Notes: generated from the letters alone by a model not told the origin. Shown: positions 4,714 through 22,184, counted from the stretch's first letter. The stretch is DNA of 31,645 nucleotides from Promethearchaeota archaeon (GCA_019058365.1 JAHPZE010000039.1:1-31645), one strand, 5' to 3'. Program-made: numbers and translations.

Positions 4714-6114
4714 ATGGTTGAAAAATGTGATATTCTTATTGTGGGTGCTGGAACTGCTGGTACCTATTTAGGATGGCTCCTTGCGAAAAAGGGATTTTCA
4801 GTGGTTATTATCGAAAAGGATAAGAGAGAAGATGTAGGAAAAAGATTAGATGTGATTCATTTTGAATCAGATAGAATTGAAAAAGCAGGAATTCCACCGT
4901 TTCAAGTAGGAGCTTCAGATTGTATTGAAATTAGGGACGTTTCGACAGTGGTTACTCCAGATTTCAAAAAAGAATTAAAAATCAGAGCTTTACAAACTAT
5001 TGTACGTTTAACACTATTTTTAAACAAGATGTATAAAGTATTAGAATCTGATGGTGTTAATTTGGAATTTAATTGTAAATTTAAAAATCTGATCTTTGAA
5101 AAAAGTAGAATTATTGGCTTAGAAGCTGAAAAAGCTGGAGAGAATATAGAATATCGAGCACAACTAGTCGTAGATGCTTCAGGTAAAGCTGCTGTTATTA
5201 GAACATCCTTGCCTGAAGATTATGGTGTAGAGAATTTCAAATTAGGTCCTGATGACGTTATGTACGTCCTCTTACAATATATCAAATGGAAAAACCCAGA
5301 AGAACCTCACCCAGCTATAGACACGGGTTATAATTGGTGGTTATTATGGTTTGGCCCCTCTTATGAGCCAGAAGGAGCAATATTAGGGGTTGGTCAACCA
5401 GGATCTTTTGAAAATGCCCGTTTAGCTCGTGAAGATTTTCTTAATAGAGCAAATCTACCTCCTTATGAAATAATCAAAAAAGAACAAGGAAGTACTCCAT
5501 ATAGAAGACCACCATATTCTTTAGTTGCAGATAGATTTTTATGTATTGGAGACGCTGCTGCAATTACCTACCCTTTTTCTGGCCATGGTGTAACTGCAAC
5601 TTGGGTATTATGCATGATTGCTTCAGATGTTATAGAAAAAGCTTTGAAGAATGGAGAGGAATTAACTAGGGATGTACTCTGGGACATCAATGTGAAGTAC
5701 TTTAGAGATCAAGGCGCTAAATTTGCAGGTCTTTTTACACAATTGTCTGGAGTTTTAAATTTTAATGAAAAGGAATGGAATTATTTTCTAAAGAAAGGTT
5801 TGATTTACCAAACTGGTGAGGGAGATGATATTCCCGAACCAAACAAAGAATATGAAGAAGAGATGAGTGTAGTTGAAATGTTAAAATTTATTTTTAAAAT
5901 CTTAGGAGGATTAATCAGAAGAAAATTATCCTTCAAACATATGAAAAGACTACTACAAGCTAATGGACTTGCTGGAAAGATCAAAAAACATTATGAAAAT
6001 TATCCAGATAATATAAGTCAGTTTGATAATTGGGTTAAAATAGCACAGGAGTTATGGGATCAGAAAAGATTAGCAATTAAGAGACTCTCCACAGTTCAAA
6101 TTGAATATCATTAA
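4714..6114 (+). CDS. FAD-dependent oxidoreductase, geranylgeranyl-reductase-like family
   Basis: DILIVGAGTAG Rossmann motif, VVDASG, IGDAA...PFSGHGV; substrate not assignable. Confidence 0.85.
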   Translation: MVEKCDILIVGAGTAGTYLGWLLAKKGFSVVIIEKDKREDVGKRLDVIHFESDRIEKAGIPPFQVGASDCIEIRDVSTVVTPDFKKELKIRALQTIVRLTLFLNKMYKVLESDGVNLEFNCKFKNLIFEKSRIIGLEAEKAGENIEYRAQLVVDASGKAAVIRTSLPEDYGVENFKLGPDDVMYVLLQYIKWKNPEEPHPAIDTGYNWWLLWFGPSYEPEGAILGVGQPGSFENARLAREDFLNRANLPPYEIIKKEQGSTPYRRPPYSLVADRFLCIGDAAAITYPFSGHGVTATWVLCMIASDVIEKALKNGEELTRDVLWDINVKYFRDQGAKFAGLFTQLSGVLNFNEKEWNYFLKKGLIYQTGEGDDIPEPNKEYEEEMSVVEMLKFIFKILGGLIRRKLSFKHMKRLLQANGLAGKIKKHYENYPDNISQFDNWVKIAQELWDQKRLAIKRLSTVQIEYH

Positions 6115-6260
6115 TTTGACTTAACTGATCAATTCTATATATTACTTCATCCAAAACTATACTCTTATAAATATTCAAGTTTAAATCAAATACAATATTA
6201 AATTTTAAAAAAATATACATCTTAAGATTTTTGAGTGTATTTAAAAAAGGAGATTTAAAA

Positions 6261-7697
6261 TTGACAGAAACACAAAAAGAAAAATATACTTATAAAAAAC
6301 GAATAATGGCTTCATATGGGGCGCGTGAACTTGCGAATCAATGGATATATGCTGCTTTCGGTTTTTCTGTGTTCTTTTTCTATGAAAGCGTCATCCAGTT
6401 GCCTACATTATTAGCAGCATTAGCTTTTGTAATCTACTCTATTTGGAATGCCGTAAATGACCCTTTAGTTGGATGGTTACTTGAGAAAATCCATATGCCA
6501 TGGGAAAAAAAAGGCTATAAGCGATTTCCTTGGATTGTAATCACTGTAATTCCATGGTTAATATCATATTTATTAATTTATTTAGTACCAGCTCAATGGT
6601 ATGGAACACCAACAATAGTTCAGCAAAATCAGTGGTCAATTTTTGGCTGGTATGTAGGTACATTATGTTTTTATGATACGCTGGTTACACTTTATGATAC
6701 AAATATCGTTTCTATATACCCAGATAAGTTTAGGACATTAGGTGAAAGACGCACAACTCAGGGTTTCGGAACTATCCTTGGTATATTAGGTTTAGTATTG
6801 GCTGCAGTACCACCAATGTTCTTCGTAGGTGAAGAAACTCTTGTTGCTTCTGGTTATATAGCTAATGCGTGGTTTAGTGTAGGATTTGGAGTAATTTTAT
6901 TTTTGTTTACTTTACCAGGGATATTCGAAGATAAGCATGTGAGAGCTTTACGGCTTCAACGTAAAGAGTCAGGTCAAATACAAGAATTAGAACCATTTCT
7001 TAAATCCACGTTAACTGTTGTAAAAGATAAAAATTTTATGTTAAAAATGACTCACTTCTTTGGTTATCAAGTTGGTGCTGTAATGACTCAAACTTCTGCG
7101 TACTATGTTGTTACTTATGTTTTATTAAATCAAACGAGTATTACCGTTTTATTACTTTCTATGTTAGTTGGATCTTTAGTCTCAGTGCCCCTATGGACAT
7201 TCGTAGCTCATAAAGTAAATGATAATAGAAAAGTAGGTATAATCGCCTGTGCTGTATTATTTATAACCTTTATACCATTAATCTTTGTTACTGATTTAAT
7301 AGGTTGGGTCATTGGTTTGATCCTATTTGGAGTAGGAATTGGAGCAAATTGGTATATTGATCCACCTATGATGGGGGATGTGTTAGATGATGTATCAGTT
7401 CGTACGGGAAAGACTCAATACACAATCTATTATGGATTCCAAGCATTTTTCATTAAGTTTGGTCAGACTTTCATAGCGATTACAATAGCATTAAGCCATG
7501 TGTTAACAGGTTTTGATCCCGCTAAGCCTATACAAACTGGTTACGCATTATTTGGTATTCGGGTTCACACTGCAATAGTTCCAGCTATTTTAATGCTCAT
7601 AACACTGCTCATCTTTTGGAAATGGTATGATATTACACCTAAGAAAGTTGCAGAGAATAAACGAAAGTTAATAGAGATTGGCTTAGAAAGACAATAA
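6261..7697 (+). CDS. MFS transporter, GPH/MelB-like (MFS_2) sugar or glycoside:cation symporter
   Basis: About 12 TM segments; WNAVNDPLVG, R.PWI and GDVLD motifs; start placed at TTG 6261 after an AAGGAG RBS. Confidence 0.9.
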   Translation: MTETQKEKYTYKKRIMASYGARELANQWIYAAFGFSVFFFYESVIQLPTLLAALAFVIYSIWNAVNDPLVGWLLEKIHMPWEKKGYKRFPWIVITVIPWLISYLLIYLVPAQWYGTPTIVQQNQWSIFGWYVGTLCFYDTLVTLYDTNIVSIYPDKFRTLGERRTTQGFGTILGILGLVLAAVPPMFFVGEETLVASGYIANAWFSVGFGVILFLFTLPGIFEDKHVRALRLQRKESGQIQELEPFLKSTLTVVKDKNFMLKMTHFFGYQVGAVMTQTSAYYVVTYVLLNQTSITVLLLSMLVGSLVSVPLWTFVAHKVNDNRKVGIIACAVLFITFIPLIFVTDLIGWVIGLILFGVGIGANWYIDPPMMGDVLDDVSVRTGKTQYTIYYGFQAFFIKFGQTFIAITIALSHVLTGFDPAKPIQTGYALFGIRVHTAIVPAILMLITLLIFWKWYDITPKKVAENKRKLIEIGLERQ

Positions 7698-7759: not shown

Positions 7760-7918
7760 ATGAGATGTATAATTATTGGTTCTGGTCTATCAGGGTTAGC
7801 CGCAGCAGCTTTATTAGCTAAAGAAGGTTTTGATGTTATCGTTTATGAACAACATGAAAAAATAGGCGGTGTTACAGCAACATTAGAAAGAGAGGGATAT
7901 CGATGGGATCGCTGGTAA
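7760..7918 (+). pseudogene. 5' fragment (52 aa) of a phytoene-desaturase-like FAD-dependent oxidoreductase
   Basis: MRCIIIGSGLSGLAAAALLAKEGFDVIVYEQHEKIGGVTATLEREGYRWDRW*: GxGxxG plus E...GG...GYRWD signature, truncated directly after it. Confidence 0.85.
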
Positions 7919-8108
7919 TTTTAAAATTTCTGAAGTGCAAGATCTTTGTTAAGAAGTGGGTATAATCAATCTTATAGTACATCATTTTGGTATGTTTGCT
8001 TATAATACGGTTAGTTACGATGATTTAGATCAACTTAAGAAAAAAAGTTCTAAAGCACTTCAAATTATTGTATCAGAGGTCGATTTTGTATATAAAATTA
8101 ACAGGTGA
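7905..8108 (+). pseudogene. 3' fragment of an MBL-fold metallo-hydrolase (UlaG-like lactonase) with an internal stop
   Basis: The frame from 7905 reads GIAGNFKISEVQDLC*EVGIINLIVHHFGMFAYNTVSYDDL...YKINR*; GN...HHFGMFAYNT resembles the UlaG-type C-terminal motif; TAA at 7950-7952. Confidence 0.6.
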
Positions 8109-8178
8109 TAATTTAAAAAACGAAAATTAATTTCTATATTCAATTTAATCTTGAAAATTTGTATGTTTGTGTTTAAAA

Positions 8179-8826
8179 ATGGATGTATTTGAAAAAATCA
8201 AAGAATTTAAAATTATACCCGTTGTTATTATAAATAATGTGAATGACGCGATTCCATTAGGAAAAACCTTAATTGAAGCAGGACTTCCAGTTATAGAAGT
8301 TACGTTTAGAACTGAAGCAGCTGCTGAATCCATTAAAAAACTTACTAAAGAACTACCAAATCTTTTTGTTGGAGCAGGTACAATTCTAAAAGTTGATCAA
8401 GTTAAAAAAGCTGTAGAAGCTGGTGCTCAATTCATAGTAACTCCAGGCTTCAATCCTAAAGTTGTAGATTATTGCGTAGAGCAAAATATTCCCATTATTC
8501 CTGGGCTGAATACTCCAACAATGGTAGAATGGGCACTTGACCGGGGTATAAAAGTAGTAAAATTTTTCCCCGCTGATCTTTCTGGTGGACCAAAAATGCT
8601 TAGAAGCTTAGCAGGTCCCTACCCTGATATGAGATTTTTACCTACAGGAGGAATAAATAGTGATTCCTTGAATAATTATTTGGAATTACCTAATGTAATT
8701 GCTTGTGGAGGCAGTTGGATAGTAAGAAAAGAATTAATCTCTGAAGGTAAATTTGAAGAAATCAAGAAGTTAATAAAAGAAGCACTTTCTTTAATAATTT
8801 CAAGAACTGAACATAATATGGTTTAA
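8179..8826 (+). CDS. eda: KDPG/KHG aldolase (bacterial-type Eda)
   Basis: IIPVV, EVTFRT, GAGT, FIVTPG, Schiff-base KFFPA, PTGG and GGSW motifs; ATG 8179 preferred over TTG 8167. Confidence 0.93.
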   Translation: MDVFEKIKEFKIIPVVIINNVNDAIPLGKTLIEAGLPVIEVTFRTEAAAESIKKLTKELPNLFVGAGTILKVDQVKKAVEAGAQFIVTPGFNPKVVDYCVEQNIPIIPGLNTPTMVEWALDRGIKVVKFFPADLSGGPKMLRSLAGPYPDMRFLPTGGINSDSLNNYLELPNVIACGGSWIVRKELISEGKFEEIKKLIKEALSLIISRTEHNMV

Positions 8827-8828
8827 AT

Positions 8829-9743
8829 GTGCAAATGAATGGTATAATATTTGACATTCAAAATTATGCGATATATGATGGACCTGGCATAAGAACTCTA
8901 ATCTTTTTGAAAGGATGCCCTTTAAAGTGTGTTTGGTGTCAAAATCCTGAATCACAAAAACTAACTCCCCAAATATCTTATTTTGAAGAAAAATGTTTAA
9001 AATGTGAAAGTTGTATTAACGCTTGTCCTAATAAGGCTCTTCAATTACAAAACGATAAAATTGTGAGAAATGAAAAACTTTGTACAACTTGTGGAACTTG
9101 TGTCGAAGCATGTCCAAATCAAGTTATGGAAATGGTTGGAAAAGAAATACTAATTGAAGAATTAGTTGAAATTGCGCTTAGAGATAAACCCTTTTATGAT
9201 AATTCGGGAGGAGGAGTGACGATTTCAGGAGGAGAACCTACGACGCAGATAAAATTTCTCTTAAAATTACTTAGAGCTCTGCAAGAAAAAGGGATCCATA
9301 CAGCAATAGAAACATGTGGCTATTTTAACGATGATATAATAGAAGATTTAATTAAAAATGTCGATTTGTTTTTATTTGATATTAAGCATATAGATTCTTT
9401 AATTCATAAAAAATATACTGGTGTCCAGAATGATAAGATTTTAGAAAACTTCTCAACCTTGCATTTAAAAATCGGTAGTGAAAGAATAATTCCTCGTATA
9501 CCCTTAATTCCAGGAGTAAATACAGACAAAAATACACTTAACAGTATAGCATCCTTCTTGAATAAAATAAATTACAATGGACCAGTACATCTAATGCCAT
9601 ATAATAAATTAGCAAAAACCAAATATGAAAAAGTAGGAATGGGGAATTTATATAGAGATATGGGAGAACTCTCAGAAGAAAATCTTCAAAATATTACACA
9701 TCTTTTTGAACAACATTCTTTTCATGTTGTTATTAATCATTAA
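8829..9743 (+). CDS. Glycyl-radical enzyme activating protein (radical SAM with 2x[4Fe-4S] ferredoxin insert)
   Basis: DGPGIRT, GCPLKCVWCQNPES, CLKCESCINACP, CTTCGTCVEACP, GGVTISGGEP, HTAIETCG; start at GTG 8829 or ATG 8835. Confidence 0.95.
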   Translation: MQMNGIIFDIQNYAIYDGPGIRTLIFLKGCPLKCVWCQNPESQKLTPQISYFEEKCLKCESCINACPNKALQLQNDKIVRNEKLCTTCGTCVEACPNQVMEMVGKEILIEELVEIALRDKPFYDNSGGGVTISGGEPTTQIKFLLKLLRALQEKGIHTAIETCGYFNDDIIEDLIKNVDLFLFDIKHIDSLIHKKYTGVQNDKILENFSTLHLKIGSERIIPRIPLIPGVNTDKNTLNSIASFLNKINYNGPVHLMPYNKLAKTKYEKVGMGNLYRDMGELSEENLQNITHLFEQHSFHVVINH

Positions 9744-9905
9744 ACTGACGACTCTTTTATTTCTCTTAATTTATCCCAAAATAACAAATTATAAATATTT
9801 CTACTATATAGTTTTTAATTAGATTTAAGAAACTTTAAGTTATTTTTAACAATTTTATAACAATCTAAATCTCTAACAGTTTACCTTAAAATGTGGTAAA
9901 AAATT

Positions 9906-12488
9906 ATGGAATTTATTGATAATGCGAGTGAGAGAATAAAAAGAATAAGAAGAAGATTTCTTGATGATACTCCTTTAATTTCAATAGAGAGAGCACAACT
10001 TTATACAGAGAAATGGAAGGAAACTGAAAACAAAGATTTTTCTCTTGGTGTAAGAGTTGCACTTTCAATGAGGAATGTTCTTGAAAACATGACTATATAT
10101 ATAGATCCTGATGATCAAATAGCGGGAAAATGGACAGAAAACTTCATCGGAATACCAGTTGACATTGAACGTGGATTATGGAACAGAGTTTTTGAAATTG
10201 AACTTGATGCAAAAACAATGAAAAAGTATATGAAAGAAAGTAATAAAAACTACATGTCATATATGATAAAAAAAATTGGATCCGATGGCCTTCGTGAATT
10301 ACTTGAAAATACCAAAAAAATAGGAGCTCCTATTACAACACTTGGAACTGAAACGTTAGAGGAAAGAAAAATAAATCCATATACAATTAAAGACGAAGAT
10401 AAAAAACTCCTTCTTACAGAACTTATTCCTTATTGGAAAGAAAAAACACTCGCTGATATTCTAGAAAAAGAATATGCAAATTCTGAGGTATATACTGGGG
10501 AAGCATATGAATTTTTATCTCATTTACCCTTAAAAACAGCTCAAAATGATATAGTAATATCTCCTTGTGCAGTGATTGGTGTATGGCAAGGTCATCTAGT
10601 TCTTGATTTTGAAACGGTCTTGAAAAAAGGACTCTTAGTTATGGAGAATGAAATACAAGATGAGATAGATAATAATAAAGGTTTAAAGGATGGACAGAAA
10701 GAATTTTTACGATCCATTAAGATAACGCTAAATGCTGTAATAATTTATGCCCATAGATTAGCAGAAAAAATAAAGGAAGAATTAAATAAGACTAGTAATG
10801 TTAAAAGAAAGAAAGAATTATCAGAGATGTATGAAATTTGTAAAAGAATCTCAACTTATCCACCTACTACATTTCGAGAAGCTGTACAGTTATTTTGGGT
10901 TGTCAAAACAACTGTAGATTTAGCTATACCTTTTAATGTACATGGTCCTGGTCGTCTAGATCAACTTTTTTATCCTTTTTATAGTTCAGACATTGTAAAA
11001 GGTCTTATCACTCGAGAAGAGGCACGAGAATTACTTGAAGAGTTAGTTTTAAATATAATGAGTCATAATATTCGTCCTTATTCTAATGCTGTAAGCGATT
11101 TTAGCCAACGATTTGAAGGCTCAGAACCAGTGACAGTAGGGGGTTTAAACGAAGATGGTAAAGATGCTACAAACGATCTTACTTATCTTGTATTAGAAGC
11201 AGCTGATAGATCAAAAGCTTCCCTTAATTTTGCTGTCCGTTTTCATGATAAAACCTCTGAAGAATTATATATGAAGGTTGCTGAAATCCAATACAATGGA
11301 TATTCAAGCATATCTGTATTAAATGATAATGTATGTATTGAAGCATTAAAGAATCGAGGTATTACTGAAAAAGATGCGAATGCCTATTCAATCACTGGAT
11401 GTGTGGATATGTGCAGTCCAGGGAAAACAGGAGGAATTGGCTTTTCAGCTCTCTTATTGTGTAGAACTCTGGATATGACACTTCGAAATGGTAACTGCTT
11501 AACAATTGGGGGTTTAGTAAATGATGTTGGATTGAAGACGGGAAACCCTGACAATTTTGATACTTTCGATGAATTTCTCGATGCTTTTAATCAGCAAGTA
11601 AATTTTGTTATTCAGAAAATAGTAGAAGCAACTACTATTCGTGATAGATTATTTGCGAATTATTTTCCTGCACCTTTCATATCTGCATTCATGCGAGGAT
11701 GCTTTAAGACTAAAAAGGATGTAACTCAAGGAGGAGCATATTACGATGCGGAAGGAATACTTATAATGAATAGTATTGCAAATATGGTCGATTCATTATT
11801 TGTAATTAAAAAACTCATCTTTGAGCAAAAAAAATTTACGTTTAAAGATTTAATTGAGGCAATCGACAATAATTTCACCGATAAATATAAAAAAATCCAT
11901 AAACTAATTTTAGATCTTGGAGGAAAATGGGGAAATGGAAACCCTGAATGTGATGAGCTTGCTCGAAAAGTCACAAATCGAATATTTGAGGAAACTTATA
12001 ATTATAAAACTTATAGAGGAGGAGTTTATGCGCCTTTTATTATATCAATGACTTCTCACACGTATGATGGACGAATAGGTATCGCAACGCCAGATGGTAG
12101 ACTAGCGGGGAAACCATTTGCAGCAAGCTGTAATCCATATAATGTTGAGAAGAATGGACCAACAGGTGTCATGCGATCAGTAGCTGCTCTTGATTTTCAG
12201 CATGTTTGTGGCTGTGCAGTTAACATACGAATGCATCCATCTGGGATTGGAAAAACAAGAGAAACTAAAAAAAAATGGATATCTCTTTTAAAAACTTACT
12301 ATAGTTTAGGAGGTCAACAACTTCAACCTACTGTCGTATCTACAGAAGTACTAAAAACAGCTCAACAAAACCCAGAACCATATAGAAATATAATTGTAAA
12401 AGTTGGGGGATATTCCGCTTATTTCACTGATTTAGGAAAAGAAATTCAAGATGAAGTCATTTCTAGAACAGAACATACTATAATTTAA
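9906..12488 (+). CDS. Glycyl radical enzyme (PFL-like superfamily, not true pyruvate formate-lyase), substrate unknown
   Basis: GRLDQ, single-Cys loop ITGCVD (C499), ATPDGR, Gly loop VKVGGYSAYF (G835); 860 aa; adjacent to an activating enzyme. Confidence 0.93.
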   Translation: MEFIDNASERIKRIRRRFLDDTPLISIERAQLYTEKWKETENKDFSLGVRVALSMRNVLENMTIYIDPDDQIAGKWTENFIGIPVDIERGLWNRVFEIELDAKTMKKYMKESNKNYMSYMIKKIGSDGLRELLENTKKIGAPITTLGTETLEERKINPYTIKDEDKKLLLTELIPYWKEKTLADILEKEYANSEVYTGEAYEFLSHLPLKTAQNDIVISPCAVIGVWQGHLVLDFETVLKKGLLVMENEIQDEIDNNKGLKDGQKEFLRSIKITLNAVIIYAHRLAEKIKEELNKTSNVKRKKELSEMYEICKRISTYPPTTFREAVQLFWVVKTTVDLAIPFNVHGPGRLDQLFYPFYSSDIVKGLITREEARELLEELVLNIMSHNIRPYSNAVSDFSQRFEGSEPVTVGGLNEDGKDATNDLTYLVLEAADRSKASLNFAVRFHDKTSEELYMKVAEIQYNGYSSISVLNDNVCIEALKNRGITEKDANAYSITGCVDMCSPGKTGGIGFSALLLCRTLDMTLRNGNCLTIGGLVNDVGLKTGNPDNFDTFDEFLDAFNQQVNFVIQKIVEATTIRDRLFANYFPAPFISAFMRGCFKTKKDVTQGGAYYDAEGILIMNSIANMVDSLFVIKKLIFEQKKFTFKDLIEAIDNNFTDKYKKIHKLILDLGGKWGNGNPECDELARKVTNRIFEETYNYKTYRGGVYAPFIISMTSHTYDGRIGIATPDGRLAGKPFAASCNPYNVEKNGPTGVMRSVAALDFQHVCGCAVNIRMHPSGIGKTRETKKKWISLLKTYYSLGGQQLQPTVVSTEVLKTAQQNPEPYRNIIVKVGGYSAYFTDLGKEIQDEVISRTEHTII

Positions 12489-12580: not shown

Positions 12581-13606
12581 TCACCAACGCCAAAATATAT
12601 CTTCAGCATGACCTAAAATGTCTTTAATATGAATTTTCTCACCATTATCTAATATTATATCTCCAGTATATAATCCATGAAGTAGGGATGAATTTAGATA
12701 AATCAATCCAAAATTGAGTTTCTCTTTATGTGGAATGAGAGGTGTTAAAACCATATTGAATCTATCATCATTACTGGTAAACTTCCAAGGTTTAGTAGGA
12801 TCTCGATCCTCATGATGAAAAGTTACTTCATCGATTTTATGAGCTTTTCCATCATAAAAGATGATATTTTCCGTATGAGTTGATAAATCTCCAAAACCAT
12901 ATCCAATATTAAAGGCAACTGGTACTCCATTTACAATTCCACACGCTGATCCCCATAACCAATGTGTGTGATAAGGCCAAATTCCACGTCCCCAATCCAT
13001 CAGACCAAATGAAGTATCTGGCTTGAAAGAGTATTCTTTTTCGCCAATCTGAAGTGATCCTTCAGCCGGCATCATGTTTATTTTATGATTATAATAAAAT
13101 AGTCTAGGATCATCTTTATAACCAGTCGCTACTACGGTATTATCCCATTCTGGTTTATCATCAAGAATAATAGTTCCTTTAATACCTTTATCTAAGAAAG
13201 TTGGGTCATCAATAGTTATTATTCTCTGCTTTCCTTTTTTTTCAATTATTGCGCAAAATTTCTTGGAAGGAAATTCAATCGAATAATCTTCTAAAGAACT
13301 AAGTGGCAAGAGTTTAGATTTCGTAAAAAACTTAAATTGTCCTTTCCCTTCTCGTTCATTCTTCTCAAAATCAAGCCATACATAACTCATCTGAGTAAGA
13401 TATCCAATGTCCCCGATTGTAAGTTGAAATCCAAATTGATTGTTTAATACAGAGAAATGATCCCACTCTTTGATACGAGACCAACCTTTTCCAATATCTT
13501 CTTTATTATAACTTAATATTGGTTTTCTTGCCCACCCCCTCTGTACAAGGGAGCCATCTTTATTAAATAAACCTGAAGGTATTGTTATTTCGTTTTGTTC
13601 TCCCAT
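12581..13606 (-). CDS. DUF2804-family protein
   Basis: GWAR.P, RIKEWD, FYYNHKIN, DWGRGIWPY...WLW, FNIGYGFGD, EN and terminal AE...RW motifs recalled for this family. Confidence 0.8.
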   Translation of the reverse strand: MGEQNEITIPSGLFNKDGSLVQRGWARKPILSYNKEDIGKGWSRIKEWDHFSVLNNQFGFQLTIGDIGYLTQMSYVWLDFEKNEREGKGQFKFFTKSKLLPLSSLEDYSIEFPSKKFCAIIEKKGKQRIITIDDPTFLDKGIKGTIILDDKPEWDNTVVATGYKDDPRLFYYNHKINMMPAEGSLQIGEKEYSFKPDTSFGLMDWGRGIWPYHTHWLWGSACGIVNGVPVAFNIGYGFGDLSTHTENIIFYDGKAHKIDEVTFHHEDRDPTKPWKFTSNDDRFNMVLTPLIPHKEKLNFGLIYLNSSLLHGLYTGDIILDNGEKIHIKDILGHAEDIFWRW

Positions 13607-13673
13607 AGTTAATTAAACTTATTATTGTTTTAAACCGATAGTTATTAAAAGATTTAAAGCAAAATAATACTTA

Positions 13674-13681
13674 TTATATAA
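13674..13681 (+). promoter_or_regulatory. Putative TATA box for a leaderless aminopeptidase transcript
   Basis: TTATATAA 25 nt upstream of ATG 13707, with an A-rich BRE-like stretch upstream and no RBS. Confidence 0.4.
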
Positions 13682-13706
13682 AATGTCAATTTTTATTGTG
13701 AATTAA

Positions 13707-14969
13707 ATGTCCTCAGAATTCGAAAAAAATTTAGATAAATTTGCAGAAGTAATTGTAAAAATTGGTCTGAATGTTCAACCTAGACAACGTTTATTAATCG
13801 GTGGACCTACAGCATATAGTTACGGGACACCTATAGAATTAGCTCCTTTAGTACGGTTGATTACAAAAAAAGCATATCAAACAGGAGCTAGATTTGTGGA
13901 AGTCTTTTGGGATGACGATAATTTACGTAAAATTCGATTTGAACACGCTCCAAGAGATTCATTTGAAGAATACCCCACTTGGCGAACTGATTGTCAATAT
14001 AAATTTGGTAAAGAAGGAGATTCTGTCCTTCTTTTTGCTGCCTGGAATCCCGATTTACTCAAGGGTTATGATACAGAATTGATGTCAACTGCACGTAATA
14101 TGTATCTTAAACATCGAAAAACTTTTGGTGACTTAATTTCTCAAAGTGCAGTGAATTGGTCAGGAATAGCAGCTCCCGTTGATGGTTGGACAGAAAAAGT
14201 ACTTCCTGATGTTGCTCCGGAAGAACAAAAAGCGAAATTATGGGAGATAATTTTTGAAATATGTCGGGTAAAAAATGAAGATCCTATCGCTGCCTGGGAG
14301 GATCACATAAAACAACTCGCAGCTAGGAGTAATTATTTGAATAAAAAGCGATATGAATCACTAAAATTGGCTGGTCCTGGGACAGATCTCATAGTTGGGT
14401 TACCTAAAAGTCATATTTGGGGAAGTGGTCGATTTAGAACCCAAAGTGGTATTGATTTTGTAGGAAATATACCCACTGAGGAAGTTTTCACAACAACCCA
14501 TAAGGATAAAACAGAAGGTATTGTGACTGCTACAAAACCTCTACCCACTGATGTTATGATTAAAGATTTTAGTTTAACTTTTTCAAAGGGACAGATCGTA
14601 GAAGCAACTGCAAAAAAAGGAGAGGAATATCTAAATAAAATTCTTGAAACCGATGAAGGGGCTAAACGATTAGGTGAGGTGGCGCTCGTGCCGTATAGTT
14701 CCCCCATATCACAATCAGGATTGCTTTTTTATAATGTTCTAATTGATGAAAATGCTGCCTCGCACATTGCTATAGGTCGAGGTTTTAAATTTGCTTTGGA
14801 AAAGGGCAGAGAAATGTCTGATGAGGAGTTTTCTGCTGCTGGTGGCAATATTAGCAAAACACACATTGATTTTATGATTGGATCAAACAAAATGGATATT
14901 GATGGAATCTTAAAAAATGGAAAAATTGAACCAATTATGCGTAAAGGAGAATGGGCTTTTGAAATTTGA
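13707..14969 (+). CDS. Aminopeptidase, peptidase M29 (AmpS/AmpT) family
   Basis: GLNVQP, NIPTEEVFT, LGEVAL, DENAASHIAIG, HIDFMIG metal-ligand motifs. Confidence 0.93.
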   Translation: MSSEFEKNLDKFAEVIVKIGLNVQPRQRLLIGGPTAYSYGTPIELAPLVRLITKKAYQTGARFVEVFWDDDNLRKIRFEHAPRDSFEEYPTWRTDCQYKFGKEGDSVLLFAAWNPDLLKGYDTELMSTARNMYLKHRKTFGDLISQSAVNWSGIAAPVDGWTEKVLPDVAPEEQKAKLWEIIFEICRVKNEDPIAAWEDHIKQLAARSNYLNKKRYESLKLAGPGTDLIVGLPKSHIWGSGRFRTQSGIDFVGNIPTEEVFTTTHKDKTEGIVTATKPLPTDVMIKDFSLTFSKGQIVEATAKKGEEYLNKILETDEGAKRLGEVALVPYSSPISQSGLLFYNVLIDENAASHIAIGRGFKFALEKGREMSDEEFSAAGGNISKTHIDFMIGSNKMDIDGILKNGKIEPIMRKGEWAFEI

Positions 14970-14972
14970 AGC

Positions 14973-16379
14973 TCATTCGATTTTTTGACAAATATTATCA
15001 ATTTTTTGAATTGTTTTATCAATAATTTCATCTGTGTGAAGCATACAAGTGTAGAATCTACTACCTGCTACAGATATAATCTCTTGATCCACCAAAGCAG
15101 CCCCCATTTCACCCATAAAATCTTTTCTATTTGGAAGCTCTCCCGCTTGTTTTGGATCACCCAAATCAAGTCCGAATAGGCAACTAGTATGAAAATGAAC
15201 TGTTCCTCCGTAATTATATGAGAACCAAGGCAAATCATAATTTTCAAATACATTATTTAATCCATTAGATAATCTTGTACCAGCTTTTATAGCTTTTTCT
15301 GTTGCATTGGTTTCTTCTACAAATTTAATAGCATAATACGCCGCTGCACATGTTAATGGATTTGCTGCTATTGTTCCACCCGAATAAGCTTTCTTACCCC
15401 CACCAACTCCACCGGCACATACATTCATTACATCAGCTCTTCCTCCAATTGCAGCAGCGGAAGGAAAGCCATGTCCTACGATTTTACCAAACACTGAAAT
15501 ATCAGGAGTATAACCAAAATATGCTTGTCCTCCACCCATATGTAGTCGAAAAGCACATACAACCTCATCTGAAATCATTAAAGCTTTATTCTCATGACAT
15601 AATTCTTCTACTTCTCTATTAAATCCCGGTCTTACGGGGAGGCTTCCGGATTCTCCGCCCATAGGTTCAACTATTACTGCAGCAACTTTACGCTTCTCTT
15701 TAAACATTTGTCTTAAAGTGTCAATATCGTTGGGTGGGCATGAATCAATCCATTTGAATATTGATTTTGGAATTCCATGGGATTCTAATAGCTTTGTTCC
15801 AGGAACGTGCATATCATATACGAGTTGATCAGACCAACCATGATAAGATCCACCAATTTTGATTACCCATTTACGGTTCGTAAAAGTTCTTGCTATTCTT
15901 ATAGCAAGCATATCTGCTTCAGTTCCTGATTGTAACCATCTAATAATTTCACATGAAGGAAAATGTTTTTGCAGCTGCTCAGCTGCTAAATATTCATATT
16001 CATTAGTTATTCCATGGCAAGGCCCAAATTCTTGAATAACTTCAACAACTTTATCAATTAATGGTTTATATTGATGACCTAAAATAATTGGTCCACCACA
16101 CATTAAGTAATCTGTTAAGACTACATCATCTACAGTCTCCATATAGCAATCATATACTCGCTTACTTGCTAAGGGAAACGGATGATTAAAAGCAAGATTA
16201 TGTTCAACTCCACCAGGAATGATTTTACGTGCTCTTTCATACGCTTCTTTGGATTTAGGATGATTTTTATGATACCTTTCAATTATCCCCTTTATTTCCT
16301 CTTGTTTAAACTTTTTAATTGGTTGGTTCACAATGTTTTCAATCTTAGCTTTCATTTCTTCATATTTCATACTAGACAT
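14973..16379 (-). CDS. PLP-dependent class-III aminotransferase (GSA-aminomutase-like, function uncertain)
   Basis: IPGGV, GPIILGH, SGTEA, GSYHGWSD, DEVVCAFR, PLP lysine in FGKIVGHGFP, SGGTIAANP. Confidence 0.88.
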   Translation of the reverse strand: MSSMKYEEMKAKIENIVNQPIKKFKQEEIKGIIERYHKNHPKSKEAYERARKIIPGGVEHNLAFNHPFPLASKRVYDCYMETVDDVVLTDYLMCGGPIILGHQYKPLIDKVVEVIQEFGPCHGITNEYEYLAAEQLQKHFPSCEIIRWLQSGTEADMLAIRIARTFTNRKWVIKIGGSYHGWSDQLVYDMHVPGTKLLESHGIPKSIFKWIDSCPPNDIDTLRQMFKEKRKVAAVIVEPMGGESGSLPVRPGFNREVEELCHENKALMISDEVVCAFRLHMGGGQAYFGYTPDISVFGKIVGHGFPSAAAIGGRADVMNVCAGGVGGGKKAYSGGTIAANPLTCAAAYYAIKFVEETNATEKAIKAGTRLSNGLNNVFENYDLPWFSYNYGGTVHFHTSCLFGLDLGDPKQAGELPNRKDFMGEMGAALVDQEIISVAGSRFYTCMLHTDEIIDKTIQKIDNICQKIE

Positions 16380-16530
16380 AGTAAATCAAAATTAACATTA
16401 TTTTGGTAACTAAATTAATTAGTAAATTGTACCATCAAAAATTAAGTTTATTTTTATGTAATGATAAAAGATATATTTTAAGAGTTACCTAAAAAAATCT
16501 TTATTTACTTTAACATCATTAATATAAATT

Positions 16531-18153
16531 ATGTCTAATTCTCAAAAAAAATATATTTTAGCAATTGACCATGGAACGGGTGGTCCAAAATCTGCTATTG
16601 TTTCTACTGAAGGGGAGATCATTGAATGGGCTTTTGAAGAAACTCCGTTATATGCTCTTAAAGGTGGTTCTGTCGAACAAAACCCAAGTGATTGGTGGAA
16701 TGCTATAATAAAAACCTCTAAGAAAGTAATTGATAGTGGGAATGTTCCGGTTGATGATATTGTGGGGGTATGCAATACCAGTCAATGGAGCGGAACTGTT
16801 GCTGTTGATAAAGATGGAAATCACCTAATGAATTCAATAATTTGGATGGATACAAGAGGGGCAAAGTATATTGAAAAATTTTATAAGAGCCTAATTCAAG
16901 TTTCAGGATATTCGTTATCTAAAATTTTAAAATGGATAAAACGAACAGGAGGGGGTCCCAGTCAGACTGGGAAGGATCCTATAGCACATATATTATGGAT
17001 TAAGAACGAACTTCCAGAGATTTATAATAAAACTTTTAAATTCTTAGAACCACAAGATTTTATTAATTTAAAACTTACGGGAAAGTTTGCTGCTTCCCCT
17101 GCTTCAATTCACGTTCATTGGATAACAGATATCAGAGATATTAATAATGTAAAATATTCAAAAAAGCTTATCAAAGGCTTTAAAATAGACCCAGAAAAAT
17201 TACCAGAACTTAAATCCTCAATAGATATACTTGGATCACTAAAGAGTAGCGTGGCTGATGAATTAGGATTGAATAAAGACGTTAAAGTTGTTATGGGTGC
17301 TCCAGATCTACCAGCAGCATCAATTGGATCAGGTGCGGTTAATAATTATGAAACGCATATTTATGTTGGTACTTCTGATTGGATAACGTGCCATGTTCCT
17401 TATAAAAAAACAGATATTAATCATAATATGGCTAGTGCTCCATCTGCAATTCCGGGAAGATATTTTATTGCCAATGAACAAGAAATCGCTGGAGGTGCTC
17501 TATCATTTCTTAGGGATAACATATTGTATCATAAAGATGAGTTATTAAAAGAGGAAGTGGTTCCCGATGTTTATAAAATATTTGATCGAATTGTAGAAAA
17601 GGTTCCTGCTGGCTCAAATAATCTAATCTTTACTCCTTGGCTTATTGGAGAAAGAGCTCCTGTTGATAATCATACTGTAAGAGGTGGTTTATATAATCTA
17701 TCATTAGAGATGTCTCGTGAGCATATAATAAGAGCGATTTTTGAAGGCGTTGCATATAATATACGATGGTTATTTATGTATATAGAGAAATTTATCCAGA
17801 AATGGAAAATGCAAGAAAATCCGAATATATCAAAGAGAGATATTATAATTCCAGAGCTTAATATTATCGGTGGAGGGGGTCAGAGTAACATATGGTGCCA
17901 AATTTTTGCTGATGTTCTTAACAGAAAGATAAAAAAAGTAAAGAATCCAATTCAAGCACAAGCTCGTGGTGCTGCGTTTATTGCATCTGTAGGATTAGGA
18001 TACCTTAAATGGGAGGAAATTCAGAGATGTTGTGAGATATCAAACGTTTTTACGCCCAATCCAGAAAATCGTCAAATTTATGATAAACTCTTCAAAGAAT
18101 ATATAAATATCTACAAAATTATGGGAAAAACCTATAAAAATTTGAATCTTTAA
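16531..18153 (+). CDS. FGGY-family carbohydrate kinase (xylulokinase-like)
   Basis: LAIDHGTGGPK, EQNP..WW, IIWMDTR, GERAP, RAIFEGVA, GGGGQS..WCQIFADV. Confidence 0.92.
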   Translation: MSNSQKKYILAIDHGTGGPKSAIVSTEGEIIEWAFEETPLYALKGGSVEQNPSDWWNAIIKTSKKVIDSGNVPVDDIVGVCNTSQWSGTVAVDKDGNHLMNSIIWMDTRGAKYIEKFYKSLIQVSGYSLSKILKWIKRTGGGPSQTGKDPIAHILWIKNELPEIYNKTFKFLEPQDFINLKLTGKFAASPASIHVHWITDIRDINNVKYSKKLIKGFKIDPEKLPELKSSIDILGSLKSSVADELGLNKDVKVVMGAPDLPAASIGSGAVNNYETHIYVGTSDWITCHVPYKKTDINHNMASAPSAIPGRYFIANEQEIAGGALSFLRDNILYHKDELLKEEVVPDVYKIFDRIVEKVPAGSNNLIFTPWLIGERAPVDNHTVRGGLYNLSLEMSREHIIRAIFEGVAYNIRWLFMYIEKFIQKWKMQENPNISKRDIIIPELNIIGGGGQSNIWCQIFADVLNRKIKKVKNPIQAQARGAAFIASVGLGYLKWEEIQRCCEISNVFTPNPENRQIYDKLFKEYINIYKIMGKTYKNLNL

Positions 18154-20318: not shown

Positions 20319-22184
20319 CTAACCTTTAATTGATTTTCCTTCCTCGAGTTTAGTTAAATCTTTTTCTTGCAATTCACGTCTTTGAACCTTACCTGTCATA
20401 CTAACCGGCATCTTTCTGACAAATTCAATATATTTGGGTGACTTCCATTTAGCCATGTTGTTTTGGCACCATTCTCTTAATTGATCACTAGTAATGTCTC
20501 TGTCAGCTTTGAAACCTTTCTTTAAAGTAACCCATGCTTTAACTGCTTCTCCCATCATTTCATCTGGTAATCCGGCAACAGCAACCTCATCTACCATTTC
20601 ATTTTGACCCATAAGTTCTTCTACTTCCTTTGGAAAAACTGAATGCCCTGCAACTTTAATAAGAGACTTCTTACGATCTCGTATCTCAACCCATCCATGC
20701 TCATCCATAAATCCAATATCACCTGTTAGCAACCAGCGTTTGCCACCCCACATCTTCAAATTATCTTCTTGTTCTTTTTGTTCTCCTAGATATCCTAACA
20801 TAATATGTGGCCCTGCACAGCAAATTTCTCCTGTATTTTCAATGCCAAAACCACCTCTTTCTTTAGTTCCATCAGCGATAGGACCTGCTTCAAAGTTATC
20901 AGAAGGAAATATAGCCCAATCTGCACCTGGAATTGGTAATCCTAATTTTCCAGATTTGGTTGGGCCCCAGAAAGGAGCTACACTTTGTATAGGTGAAGTT
21001 TCCGTTAATCCATATCCCGAACGTATTGGGCAAAATATTTCCTCAAAAGGATCCTTTACGTAAGAATGTAATGGGCCTGCTCCCTGCGTGGCATATTTCA
21101 ATTTCTTCCAAAAATCATATTTCTTTTTAAATTCATCAACACCCATTTCCTGTACAAAGTCTGTTAACCTTTTAAACAACATTTCGACTCCTGTATATAT
21201 TATTCCTTCAGGAGCATCTATCTTATTTATTGCTTCGCATAGAGCATCATCTGAAGGTGGCTTTGGGAAGAGAATCATAACCATTCCTATACCAAGAGCA
21301 GCATTCATGACACAAGTCATACCAAAGCTATGAAAAAAGGGGATAGAACCGATAGTCACCACACCTGGCCCAAGACCCGTCCAAGGTTTAACCATATTTA
21401 GATTAGCACTTAGATTAGCATGTGAAAGCATCGCAACTTTAGGAAGTCCAGTAGTACCCCCAGTCATTAGATATATTGCAGGATCTGTCCATGGATCTAT
21501 CTGAGTTTCAATTTCTTCTGGTTGTGTTTCCTTTATTATTTTATCCATCCAATATACTTTATAATTTTCAGTTTCGTTAGGTATCTTGTCTCGAGCACTT
21601 GGAACACCTAATTTCTCAATTGTAGCTTGATCTGCAGTGAAAAAGTCTACAAAATTTGAAGGTATCACATATTTTACGCTAGTTTTTGGAAGCACATCTT
21701 TAGGACCCGCGATATATAACATATCCATCATAACAAATACTTTGGCTTTTGTCATAGTTAATGAATGTAAAAGTTCCATTGGTCTATACTGTGGATTAAT
21801 CCCTTGTGAAATTGCACCAATATACTGACAGCCCATATAAGCAACCACAAAATTGATAGAATTAGGCAAATCAATAGCAACAACATCACCCTTTCTTATT
21901 CCCAAATTCTTATAGAGAAAGGTTCCAAACCGTTTTGCATAATCAAATATAGTTTTTAATTTTACACGTTCTATATATGGACCATATACAAATATACAAC
22001 TATCTTTATCCCATGTCCCGTATAAATCTGCAACACTTAAAAAATATTCCCACATTGGTAAAATTTCAACGTCTTCAACGTCTTTTAACTGTTTTGGTAC
22101 ACCTTCAGGCCAATAACCTCCAGTAAACCATACCTTATTCTCATCAACTAAAAATTCTGGATCATTTAAACTCTTCATCTTCAT
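20319..22184 (-). CDS. Long-chain fatty acid--CoA ligase (ANL adenylation family)
   Basis: YLMTGGTTGLPK, PFFHSFG, GYGLTETSP, TGD, RKK.LIKVAG, GKV motifs; start uncertain (22178-22187). Confidence 0.92.
   Translation of the reverse strand: MKMKSLNDPEFLVDENKVWFTGGYWPEGVPKQLKDVEDVEILPMWEYFLSVADLYGTWDKDSCIFVYGPYIERVKLKTIFDYAKRFGTFLYKNLGIRKGDVVAIDLPNSINFVVAYMGCQYIGAISQGINPQYRPMELLHSLTMTKAKVFVMMDMLYIAGPKDVLPKTSVKYVIPSNFVDFFTADQATIEKLGVPSARDKIPNETENYKVYWMDKIIKETQPEEIETQIDPWTDPAIYLMTGGTTGLPKVAMLSHANLSANLNMVKPWTGLGPGVVTIGSIPFFHSFGMTCVMNAALGIGMVMILFPKPPSDDALCEAINKIDAPEGIIYTGVEMLFKRLTDFVQEMGVDEFKKKYDFWKKLKYATQGAGPLHSYVKDPFEEIFCPIRSGYGLTETSPIQSVAPFWGPTKSGKLGLPIPGADWAIFPSDNFEAGPIADGTKERGGFGIENTGEICCAGPHIMLGYLGEQKEQEDNLKMWGGKRWLLTGDIGFMDEHGWVEIRDRKKSLIKVAGHSVFPKEVEELMGQNEMVDEVAVAGLPDEMMGEAVKAWVTLKKGFKADRDITSDQLREWCQNNMAKWKSPKYIEFVRKMPVSMTGKVQRRELQEKDLTKLEEGKSIKG

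Follow-up and report, generated by a model that had tools for sequence, protein, structure and literature searches.

A distinct clade of glycyl radical enzymes in Asgard archaea and anaerobic bacteria, its candidate role in sugar catabolism, and an eroded copy of its gene cluster beside eda

Does a glycyl radical enzyme (GRE) encoded, with its activating enzyme (AE, or activase), immediately behind eda supply a substrate to the aldolase? The question is raised by a stretch of 31,645 nucleotides (hereafter the window) from a genome of the Promethearchaeota (Lokiarchaeota, Asgard), in which all of the genes described here lie on the + strand. A first-pass annotation of the window had placed it in an archaeon, in agreement with syntenic contigs from Promethearchaeota MAGs whose GREs are 82–95% identical, and had proposed that the GRE may feed Eda in a radical catabolic pathway. 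In our assessment, it is somewhat probable that the GRE belongs to a clade (termed CXD here for its catalytic loop) that carries out a sugar-type radical C–O elimination followed by the action of a kinase and an aldolase, in a gene cluster that has eroded in the window genome.

The surviving genes are readily assigned. The GPH transporter noticed at first pass is a sugar:cation symporter of the GPH/MFS_2 family (6231–7697, +; Pfam MFS_2, 149 bits; TIGR00792 gph, 113 bits) with a dN/dS of 0.11–0.16. The eda gene (8179–8826, +; PF01081, 238 bits) encodes a canonical class I KDPG/KHG aldolase that passes the curated cut-offs (NF004325, 275 against 241; TIGR01182, 268 against 156); its motifs EVTFR, VKFFPA, PTGGI, and GGSW align to the solved Eda structures 1VHC and 4E38, and membership in the family was borne out when the Schiff-base Lys, the Glu/Arg pair, and the phosphate-binding loops were tested. 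It is the genome's sole PF01081 match, evolves at a dN/dS of 0.10–0.23, and is chimeric at its C-terminal tail, the foreign part comprising the last nine residues only. As first described, the eda stop codon (ending at 8826) is followed after 2 bp by the GTG start of the activase (8 bp to the ATG), and then by the GRE. The radical-SAM activase (8835–9743, +, from the ATG at 8835, with an alternative GTG at 8829; TIGR02494, 346 against 174) contains the CX3CX2C motif and two ferredoxin-type Cys motifs, with Radical_SAM and two Fer4 matches, while the GRE (9906–12488, +; 860 aa) matches the PFL-like (PF02901, 494 bits) and Gly_radical (PF01228, 73 bits) domains. Neither gene is disrupted, and purifying selection acts on both (dN/dS of 0.15–0.19 for the activase and 0.09–0.14 for the GRE); they are predicted to encode working enzymes.

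Two gene remnants lie between the symporter and eda. One (7760–7909, +) encodes residues 1–50, the N-terminus, of a CrtI/amine-oxidase-like FAD oxidoreductase (f22), with 58–73% identity by tblastn to the intact f22 genes of locus L028; in relatives, f22 is found upstream of a module of sugar-phosphate enzymes. The other (7899–8105, +), noted at first pass as lactonase-like, encodes C-terminal residues 218–286, interrupted by one TAA, of an MBL-fold, UlaG-like lactonase-type hydrolase, at 78–79% amino acid identity to the intact protein of the related locus L001. In intact clusters the MBL hydrolase gene precedes eda, and positions 7903–8179 of the window are 87% identical in DNA to L001 6693–6971. 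A first deletion extends from the N-terminus of f22 to the C-terminus of the MBL hydrolase, with loss of the module.

At the other end of eda, the window Eda terminates in ...EALSLI-ISRTEHNMV, compared with ...EALSLIK for the Eda of L001 and ...ISRTEHT(I/M)(I/V) for the GREs. The junction (8796–8834, +) consists of the 3′ end of a lost GRE paralogue (ISRTEHNMV*) and the old GRE–activase spacer, fused in frame to eda; its DNA matches L001 9729–9862, which follows a GRE remnant in that locus, and the GRE-derived tail is restricted to the window, L008, and L010. A second deletion extends from the 3′ end of eda to the 3′ end of the upstream GRE paralogue, with loss of the kinase; by fusing eda to the lost paralogue's tail, this event produced the 2-bp spacing of eda and the activase. 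Judged from these alignments, the junction is a deletion scar and the last nine eda codons are the tail of the lost paralogue, so that the caveat already attached to the first-pass reading, namely that the adjacency might be a by-product of rearrangement, was well placed. The window evidently holds an eroded copy of the cluster, in which the transporter, Eda, the activase, and the GRE remain; a search of the window genome found neither the module nor the cluster's own FGGY kinase. An FGGY kinase is encoded at 16531–18153 (+), with 28% identity to the L001 cluster kinase, and neighbours DUF2804-M29-aminotransferase genes, also in GRE-free relatives; it belongs to the conserved chromosomal backbone and is distinct from the cluster's own kinase, for which it could possibly stand in.

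The GRE itself shows the hallmarks of the superfamily—a PFL-like barrel, a C-terminal glycine-radical domain with the radical G835, the catalytic C499, and an adjacent activase—and was rightly called atypical at first pass. Its Cys loop reads G-C499-V-D501 (11397–11408), with CXD replacing CXE, and its Gly loop K-V-G-G835-Y-S (12399–12416), with KVGGY replacing RVxG (Arg to Lys), while the strand R402-F-E404-G-S-E-P represents an R-x-E-G-S-E-P motif specific to the clade. The motifs GCVD, QGH, RxEGSEP, and KVGGYS show no variation among 15 diverse clade members and hold across the sugar-context clade of a 94-sequence set; a sister clade keeps GCVE, has RxLGS, and is encoded beside ADC and acyl-CoA dehydrogenase genes. 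All characterised GRE 1,2-eliminases and isomerases (GD, PD, HypD, CutC, IslA, HpsG, YbiW, PflD, and HplG) keep CXE with its catalytic Glu (PMC13450708), which is absent from this clade, where C499-V-D501 is invariant. In the curated model search, the GRE scored under every NCBIfam cut-off for known GRE classes, the best matches being the PFL2-3 subfamily (510 against 678), HpsG (467 against 1000), HypD (450 against 1100), HpfG (423 against 1000), and CutC (393 against 1050). The possibility that the GRE falls in a characterised class unrelated to Eda substrates was thus examined, and the enzyme lies outside all characterised classes; by its motifs and scores it represents a distinct PFL2-type clade, as yet uncharacterised, with members in Asgard archaea and in anaerobic bacteria. 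Pyruvate formate-lyase was also considered and rejected (a G-C-V-D loop without two adjacent catalytic Cys; TIGR01255, 102 against a cut-off of 994). Among archaeal PFL-like GREs, structural work exists only for PflD of Archaeoglobus fulgidus (PDB 2F3O), whose function is debated (PMC13450708); it is likewise an archaeal PFL2-type GRE, at 320 bits to the window GRE, but belongs to a different clade, that of the window GRE being marked by motifs of its own and by a carbohydrate context.

That context emerges from the neighbourhoods of the clade. In archaea, a module of f22, unk317, cPGI (cupin phosphoglucose isomerase), 2-HADH, MBL, Eda, and FGGY genes adjoins GRE and AE across three subclades, in four different arrangements, with the 2-HADH and MBL genes fused in some genomes. 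The module's cupin scores 196 bits against the Pyrococcus cPGI, unk317 has the shikimate-DH fold, to which 5-ketofructose reductase also belongs, and the nearest relatives of the 2-HADH and MBL proteins are PGDH and ascorbate-6-P lactonase, respectively. Bacterial loci contain TetR, MFS_2, GRE (at times two), AE, FeADH, FGGY, and DeoC, the last being a class I aldolase (DERA) that scores 202 against a cut-off of 117. The GRE–activase–FGGY block is orthologous between Asgard archaea and anaerobic bacteria: archaeal and Desulfobacterales loci share 59% (GRE), 61% (AE), and 52% (FGGY) identity, the AE and FGGY alignments being gap-free, and on this comparison the three genes are co-inherited across domains. 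Of 86 loci, 33 have an MFS_2 gene beside the GRE, and the MFS_2 proteins of the window and of the bacterial cluster share only 21% identity, so they belong to a common family but are not orthologues. Minimal loci (MFS_2-GRE-AE and AFOR-GRE-AE-MFS_2) also exist. Sulfatase and anSME-like genes occur near some loci, and one clade member is found in a Hermodarchaeota MAG (L034).

A phylogenetic profile of 121 genomes of the class, which as related genomes are non-independent samples, places the GRE in 32 of them. Within this set of relatives, the GRE was found in 15 of 16 genomes with FGGY493, 15 of 17 with unk317, and 16 of 17 with full-length MBL. In 13 genomes no more than 10 kb separates Eda from the GRE; Eda is unmatched in seven of the 32 GRE-positive genomes and occurs in 38 of the 89 that lack the GRE, where none of 20 Eda loci contains the complete module. 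These comparative data support a real link of the GRE clade to sugar catabolism. Far from never co-occurring with eda, orthologues of the GRE recur with eda, an FGGY kinase, and sugar-phosphate enzymes in four gene orders. The proposal of a radical catabolism joining GRE and Eda is therefore upheld for the enzyme family, through co-occurrence with eda and the kinase and through DERA in bacteria, but not for the window as it was first read, where the junction is a scar, the module and kinase have been deleted, Eda is present in GRE-free relatives, and an SDR-UxuA is encoded.

From gene identities, clade motifs, synteny, co-occurrence, deletions, and purifying selection, we infer a reaction type, a substrate class, and an order of steps. 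The most likely function of the GRE is that of a radical C–O lyase, predicted to make a deoxy-keto sugar for phosphorylation by a kinase and cleavage by an aldolase. The radical Gly and the catalytic Cys are conserved in the enzyme, as is the His that in diol dehydratases protonates the leaving hydroxyl; Asp takes the place of the catalytic Glu of CXE, and a neighbouring strand of the active site bears a new Glu (E404). Its substrate would be an imported sugar-like polyol (an alditol, a sugar acid, or an O-substituted or anhydro sugar), from a carbinol carbon of which the thiyl radical would abstract hydrogen; elimination of the adjacent C–O bond would then leave a deoxy-keto sugar, with its carbonyl beside a methylene. 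The pairing of a GPH symporter with an FGGY kinase suggests that phosphorylation follows the radical step, and the co-inherited kinase would act on the deoxy-keto sugar before a class I aldolase splits it. In bacteria, DERA would do so directly, accompanied by an Fe-ADH; in Asgard archaea, the cupin PGI, the shikimate-DH-fold dehydrogenase, the MBL lactonase, and the 2-hydroxyacid dehydrogenase may convert a 3-deoxy-ketose phosphate to KDPG for Eda. The usual substrate of DERA is a 2-deoxy-aldose and that of Eda a 2-keto-3-deoxy acid, and a single GRE product serving both routes would need a hypothetical DERA homologue able to use a 3-deoxy-ketose phosphate. The most specific version of this scheme is possible but doubtful: a new radical sugar dehydratase or C–O lyase would install the deoxy position at the outset, making a 3-deoxy-2-ketose from a hexitol or an O-substituted sugar taken up by the cell, which the Asgard kinase and module would carry through KDPG to Eda as a "radical Entner-Doudoroff" route without Edd, and which a bacterial DERA homologue would split directly. 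If true, a function could for the first time be assigned to an archaeal PFL-like GRE, and the clade would provide the first eliminase-type GRE in which Asp and a relocated Glu replace CXE.

A precedent for such logic is provided by the E. coli "anhydroglycolysis" isomerases YbiW and PflD, GREs that cut a C–O bond of a sugar derivative: anhydro-sugar phosphates are opened, and the resulting deoxy-ketose phosphate is cleaved by an aldolase to GAP and a small carbonyl (PMC13450708). Unlike the window GRE, which scores only 280–297 bits against them, these enzymes keep CXE and act on PTS-phosphorylated sugars, whereas the clade studied here is accompanied by a GPH symporter, an FGGY kinase, and the aldolases Eda or DERA. 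The classical Entner–Doudoroff sequence (G6P dehydrogenase, lactonase, Edd, and Eda) is echoed by the isomerase, dehydrogenase, lactonase-type hydrolase, and canonical Eda of the Asgard module, and the genes found in relatives are consistent with a pathway of that type; the clusters differ in having no Edd-type dehydratase, with the GRE and an additional 2-hydroxyacid dehydrogenase instead. Such an Edd-less gene set would fit a deoxy position made first, by radical chemistry, and a 2-keto group made last.

Against the radical C–O elimination reading stands the alternative that GRE and Eda are functionally unrelated, with Eda as the genome's sole KDPG aldolase, serving hexuronate or mannonate breakdown, the GRE and activase acting on some imported compound, their product leaving through an aldehyde oxidoreductase or alcohol dehydrogenase, and the clustering reflecting a variable genomic hot-spot. 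The scarred eda–activase junction speaks for it, as do the GRE-positive genomes without an Eda match, the existence of AFOR-linked and MFS_2-only GRE loci, the GRE-free relatives that retain Eda on its own at the same chromosomal spot beside DUF2804-M29-aminotransferase, and the SDR-UxuA, which in the window genome offers Eda a conventional supply of KDG. We nevertheless regard it as unlikely, since module genes nearly exclusive to GRE-positive genomes cluster with Eda in four arrangements, the complete module is missing from every sampled Eda locus of GRE-free genomes, and the bacterial orthologous block is again accompanied by an aldolase.

The remaining alternatives assign a different chemistry to the GRE. 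The closest solved structures are those of the B12-independent glycerol (367 bits) and propanediol (381 bits) dehydratases (PDB 1R8W, 5I2A), GRE C–O eliminases that share the PFL2-type fold, the catalytic Cys (GDH C433, equivalent to C499), the radical Gly, the His equivalent to GDH H164 (H230), and an activase with extra Fe-S motifs. The window GRE differs from them in its KVGGY loop (RVxGY in these dehydratases), in an insertion of approximately 60 residues near 85–148, and in a context of sugar transporter, kinase, and aldolase without microcompartment or 1,3-propanediol genes. The GRE might be a small-diol dehydratase of the propanediol or glycerol type that follows the aldolase and acts on a cleavage product after its reduction, with the aldehyde passing to the AFOR or Fe-ADH whose genes adjoin the GRE in several loci. 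This is quite improbable, however: CXE is replaced by CXD and the diol-contacting positions by other residues (GDH H281-S282 by N344-V345, and W-H-D447 by I-G-F513), scores fall far under the curated cut-offs, and the kinase is co-inherited with the GRE. The clade's steadiest partner is the sugar-type GPH transporter, and the minimal loci consist of transporter, GRE, and AE only. A C–S or C–N lyase like those acting on isethionate, DHPS, or choline, tied to sulfo-sugar breakdown, is very unlikely. In E. coli, sulfoquinovose is carried by GPH transporters, which together with the sulfatase and anSME-like genes would suit such a role, as would the rank of HpsG as second-best NCBIfam model (467 bits) and the 362 bits to 6LON; yet the HpsG score is less than half of its cut-off, and the sulfonate triad Arg-Gln-Arg of HpsG (R183, Q187, and R672; PMC13450708) is absent, the region reading QGH and the R672 position being an invariant F711. 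Finally, Asgard PFL-like GREs have been annotated as alkyl- or benzylsuccinate synthases (Ass/Bss) on the basis of 29–33% identity (PMC8163825), and the Hermodarchaeota clade member could be cited in the same vein. This reading is disfavoured and has scarcely any probability for the window GRE: BSS and MasD reach 187 and 204 bits compared with 381 for propanediol dehydratase, no small subunits (of at least 70 aa), fumarate-pathway genes, or beta-oxidation genes were seen in 86 loci, and the genes that do surround the clade encode a transporter, a sugar kinase, and an aldolase.

The window encodes an intact glycyl radical enzyme (GRE) and radical-SAM activating enzyme (activase) of a new clade. 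All of the genes lie on the plus strand, namely a GPH/MFS_2 symporter (6231–7697), an eda gene for a KDPG/KHG aldolase (8179–8826; NF004325, 275 bits versus a cut-off of 241), the activase (from GTG 8829 or ATG 8835 to 9743, with CX3CX2C and two ferredoxin-type motifs), and the 860-aa GRE (9906–12488). Eda is canonical, its EVTFR, VKFFPA, PTGGI, and GGSW motifs aligning to solved Eda structures. These four genes are under purifying selection (dN/dS 0.09–0.23). The AT-rich, 162-bp spacer between activase and GRE (9744–9905) contains a T-rich stretch and TATA-like boxes, possible signs of a separate promoter for the GRE. The source assembly comprises 4.74 Mb in 54 contigs; contigs syntenic with the window, whose GREs are 82–95% identical, are Promethearchaeota/Lokiarchaeota MAGs, which bears out the archaeal host proposed in the first-pass annotation. 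The gene set it described is also confirmed.

The GRE scores under every curated cut-off (score/cut-off: PFL2-3 subfamily, 510/678; HpsG, 467/1000; HypD, 450/1100; CutC, 393/1050). Among proteins of solved structure it matches propanediol dehydratase (381 bits) and glycerol dehydratase (GDH; 367 bits) best; YbiW/PflD score 280–297 and succinate synthases 187–204. Fifteen diverse homologues share invariant C499-V-D501, Q-G-H230, R402-x-E404-G-S-x-P, S-C-N-P-Y-N-V, and K-V-G-G835-Y-S motifs. The clade-invariant GCVD and KVGGY motifs justify the earlier description of this GRE as atypical. H230 aligns with GDH H164, the putative proton donor to the leaving hydroxyl, whereas the diol-binding positions of GDH are not kept; nor is the sulfonate triad of IslA/HpsG, and a role as a sulfonate lyase (acting on DHPS, isethionate, or sulfoquinovose) was rejected on its absence. 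PFL was likewise rejected (93 bits), and succinate synthase was ruled out by score and gene context; published genome papers have interpreted Asgard GREs as hydrocarbon-activating succinate synthases (PMC8163825).

According to a 2026 review, all characterized eliminases and isomerases retain a CXE motif with the catalytic Glu, and none of the archaeal PFL-like GREs has a known function (PMC13450708). The present clade, with GCVD in place of CXE (the CXD clade), is an exception to the motif rule that occurs commonly among Asgard archaea and sediment bacteria; no characterization of it was found in the literature searched. In a tree built from 94 family members (86 loci), a deep sister clade keeps GCVE and has R-x-L-G-S, whereas GCVD and R-x-E-G-S-E-P mark the carbohydrate-context clade; E404 thus appears together with the replacement of Glu by Asp. 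In the alignment E404 occupies the same strand face as the counterpart of GDH Y339, and we infer that it probably lies in the active site. Genes around the sister clade (the L059–L085 group of loci, e.g., L059:538-5828 and L060:7277-14629), in which KVGGYS is also present, encode a TetR regulator, two NAD-epimerases/dehydratases, an acetoacetate-decarboxylase-like protein, and an acyl-CoA dehydrogenase; this is another uncharacterized GRE context.

Loci of relatives were fetched by exact-protein look-ups and a scan of species-representative genomes, after which neighboring ORFs were clustered; the homologue search was run without composition-based statistics and SEG filtering, as default settings hid AT-rich homologues. 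In its fullest form, the archaeal cluster reads MFS_2 – f22 – unk317 – cupin – 2-hydroxyacid dehydrogenase – MBL hydrolase – Eda – FGGY kinase – GRE – activase, and the module from f22 to the kinase adjoins the GRE in four gene orders and three subclades (L001/L025; L028/L029/L035; L026/L007; L031). Here, f22 is a CrtI-like FAD oxidoreductase, and the cupin is closely related to the Pyrococcus cupin-type phosphoglucose isomerase (196 bits). The nearest families of the 2-hydroxyacid dehydrogenase and the MBL protein are phosphoglycerate dehydrogenase and ascorbate-6-phosphate lactonase, respectively, and the two are fused into one gene in some genomes. For unk317, which has no Pfam family, sequence searches gave weak shikimate-dehydrogenase matches and nothing more; a fold search was informative, the predicted model (pLDDT 73) adopting a shikimate-dehydrogenase fold (Foldseek E about 1e-14); 5-ketofructose reductase belongs to the same fold family. 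A third archaeal locus type reads AFOR – GRE – activase – MFS_2.

The bacterial block, found in Desulfobacterales, Syntrophaceae, Dehalococcoidia, Spirochaetota, and others, is organized as TetR – MFS_2 – GRE (often two or three paralogues) – activase – Fe-ADH – FGGY – DeoC, with DeoC above the cut-off for deoxyribose-phosphate aldolase (DERA; 202 versus 117). Between one Loki and one Desulfobacterales locus, identity reaches 59% for the GRE, 61% for the activase, and 52% for the FGGY kinase (the latter two gap-free), and these three genes therefore form a co-inherited unit. The transporters share a family at 21% identity, are not orthologous, and were recruited separately. The GRE is thus co-inherited with a sugar kinase, and its linkage to class I aldolases and sugar-phosphate enzymes is recurrent.

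The CXD GRE occurs in 32 of 121 genomes of the class that were searched. Most carriers of the module's other genes also have it (cluster FGGY kinase, 15 of 16 genomes; unk317, 15/17; full-length MBL, 16/17), as do 25 of the 63 Eda-bearing genomes; Eda is present in 25/32 GRE genomes versus 38/89 GRE-free ones, and in 13 genomes Eda and the GRE are no more than 10 kb apart. These genomes are related and not independent, and the counts are given without a statistical test. Module and GRE lie on separate contigs in four genomes (G021, G039, G076, and G116), and in the main exception, genome G049, the module runs up to the end of its contig, at precisely the place predicted for the GRE. Conversely, the module is missing from roughly half of the GRE genomes. 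We read this asymmetry as a module that needs the GRE and a GRE that does not need the module, which fits a GRE acting upstream.

In the window, this cluster is eroded. The 480-bp spacer between symporter and eda holds two gene fragments: the first 50 codons of f22 (7760–7909) and the last 69 codons, with one TAA, of the MBL gene (7899–8105). The latter stretch shares 87% DNA identity with the module-bearing relative L001 over the intact gene's 3′ end and the spacer that separates it from eda, confirming the lactonase-like remnant noted earlier. One deletion lies between the f22 N-terminal and MBL C-terminal remnants, and neither unk317, the cupin, the 2-hydroxyacid dehydrogenase, nor the cluster kinase was found anywhere in the genome. 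At a second deletion, homology of eda to its orthologues ends at 8795, and from 8793 the window is colinear with the activase–GRE unit of relatives; a further match, L001 9729–9862, lies after the remnant of an upstream GRE copy. The window Eda ends in EALSLI-ISRTEHNMV, normal Eda in EALSLIK(S), and GREs in ISRTEHT(I/M)(I/V), which shows that an in-frame fusion joined eda to the terminal codons of a GRE paralogue since lost; the 2–8 bp between eda and activase are the old GRE–activase spacing. Evolved translational coupling was accordingly rejected as an explanation of the 2-bp gap. This chimeric tail occurs only in the window and in loci L008 and L010; other relatives lost the same genes via different junctions. 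The eda–activase adjacency on which the first-pass annotation had built is a deletion junction, as its own caveat of a rearrangement by-product anticipated.

In GRE-free relatives, Eda alone occupies the same position, adjoining DUF2804, M29 peptidase, aminotransferase, and another FGGY kinase genes. The corresponding window genes (12581–18153; DUF2804, M29 aminopeptidase, class-III aminotransferase, and a 540-aa FGGY kinase) make up a backbone that is conserved beside Eda in GRE-positive and GRE-free relatives alike; to our knowledge, DUF2804 has no known function. By Pfam search, eda is single-copy in the window's genome. The genome also carries an SDR–UxuA pair, a conventional KDG source, and Eda therefore has work without the GRE. 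L001 (9209–9862) holds N- and C-terminal pieces of an upstream GRE and an activase 5′ end just before the working GRE; given such remnants (see also L009 and L011), tandem GRE–activase–GRE arrays are ancestral in the genus. Upstream, window 4714–7697 (an FAD oxidoreductase and the MFS_2 gene) looks like a product of recombination or allelic replacement: relative to the closest relative, L008, dS is about 1.7 for MFS_2 versus 0.18–0.35 for the adjoining eda–activase–GRE, and the segment is closer, at 84% DNA identity, to L086, which comes from a congeneric genome lacking the GRE.

For the chemistry, we infer that the CXD-clade GRE is a dehydratase-type C–O lyase. Its thiyl radical would take a hydrogen from a carbinol carbon, Asp501 and/or Glu404 would deprotonate its hydroxyl, and the neighboring oxygen substituent would depart with assistance from His230. 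The product would carry a C=O beside a CH2 and a beta-hydroxyl, the pattern cleaved by DERA (in an aldehyde) and Eda (in a 2-keto acid). In archaea, the GRE might convert an imported substrate to a 3-deoxy-2-ketose, which the FGGY kinase would phosphorylate to its 6-phosphate and the cupin isomerase convert to a 3-deoxy-aldose-6-phosphate; the unk317 dehydrogenase would then yield a lactone, the MBL lactonase 3-deoxy-6-phosphogluconate, the 2-hydroxyacid dehydrogenase KDPG, and Eda pyruvate and GAP.

This seven-step scheme uses every conserved gene and comes close to the radical Entner-Doudoroff variant first suggested, although we consider it rather unlikely to be correct. Its weak point is the need for the bacterial DERA to act on a 3-deoxy-ketose phosphate; failing that, the enzymes of the bacterial block would make a 2-deoxy-aldose from a pentitol. 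Schemes starting from inositol-type compounds, 3,6-anhydrogalactose, uronates, or 2-deoxyribose were also considered; any of them may apply, although they employ the conserved genes less fully than the 3-deoxy-ketose scheme. The radical-pathway interpretation is supported for the ancestral cluster of the enzyme family, with its kinase and aldolase linkage, and fails for the local junction. If radical dehydration followed by aldol cleavage is the true logic, it would constitute a second, widespread "radical glycolysis" beside the YbiW/PflD pathway, for which our analysis supplies a concrete enzyme set for testing. The message for the present genome, where only GRE, activase, transporter, and Eda survive, is more modest.

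Some loci carry further genes. Genes for corrinoid proteins and MtaA-like methyltransferases (URO-D family) stand beside the GRE or Eda at six loci of several lineages (L001:13623-15403; L004:15232-18189; L042, L048, L075, and L097). These URO-D and B12-binding neighbors possibly point to O-methylated (O-methyl sugar) substrates, or may be chance adjacencies in genomes rich in such genes, given that the window's own genome encodes at least 13 B12-binding paralogues. In one archaeal subclade, sulfatase, radical-SAM/SPASM (anaerobic sulfatase maturase-like), and PIG-L deacetylase genes near the GRE cluster (L007:1339-2943 and 20681-21949; L026, L027, and L030) hint at sulfated glycan-derived substrates. 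The window's genome also encodes six more GRE paralogues, about 30% identical to the window GRE, and at least three more activases (C8:22121-28839, ordered Fe-ADH, AFOR, activase, GRE; C34:108265-111174 and 141787-146677; C16:284935-287307; C21:30677-33031; C35:231375-233729), which amounts to unusually many GREs for an archaeon.
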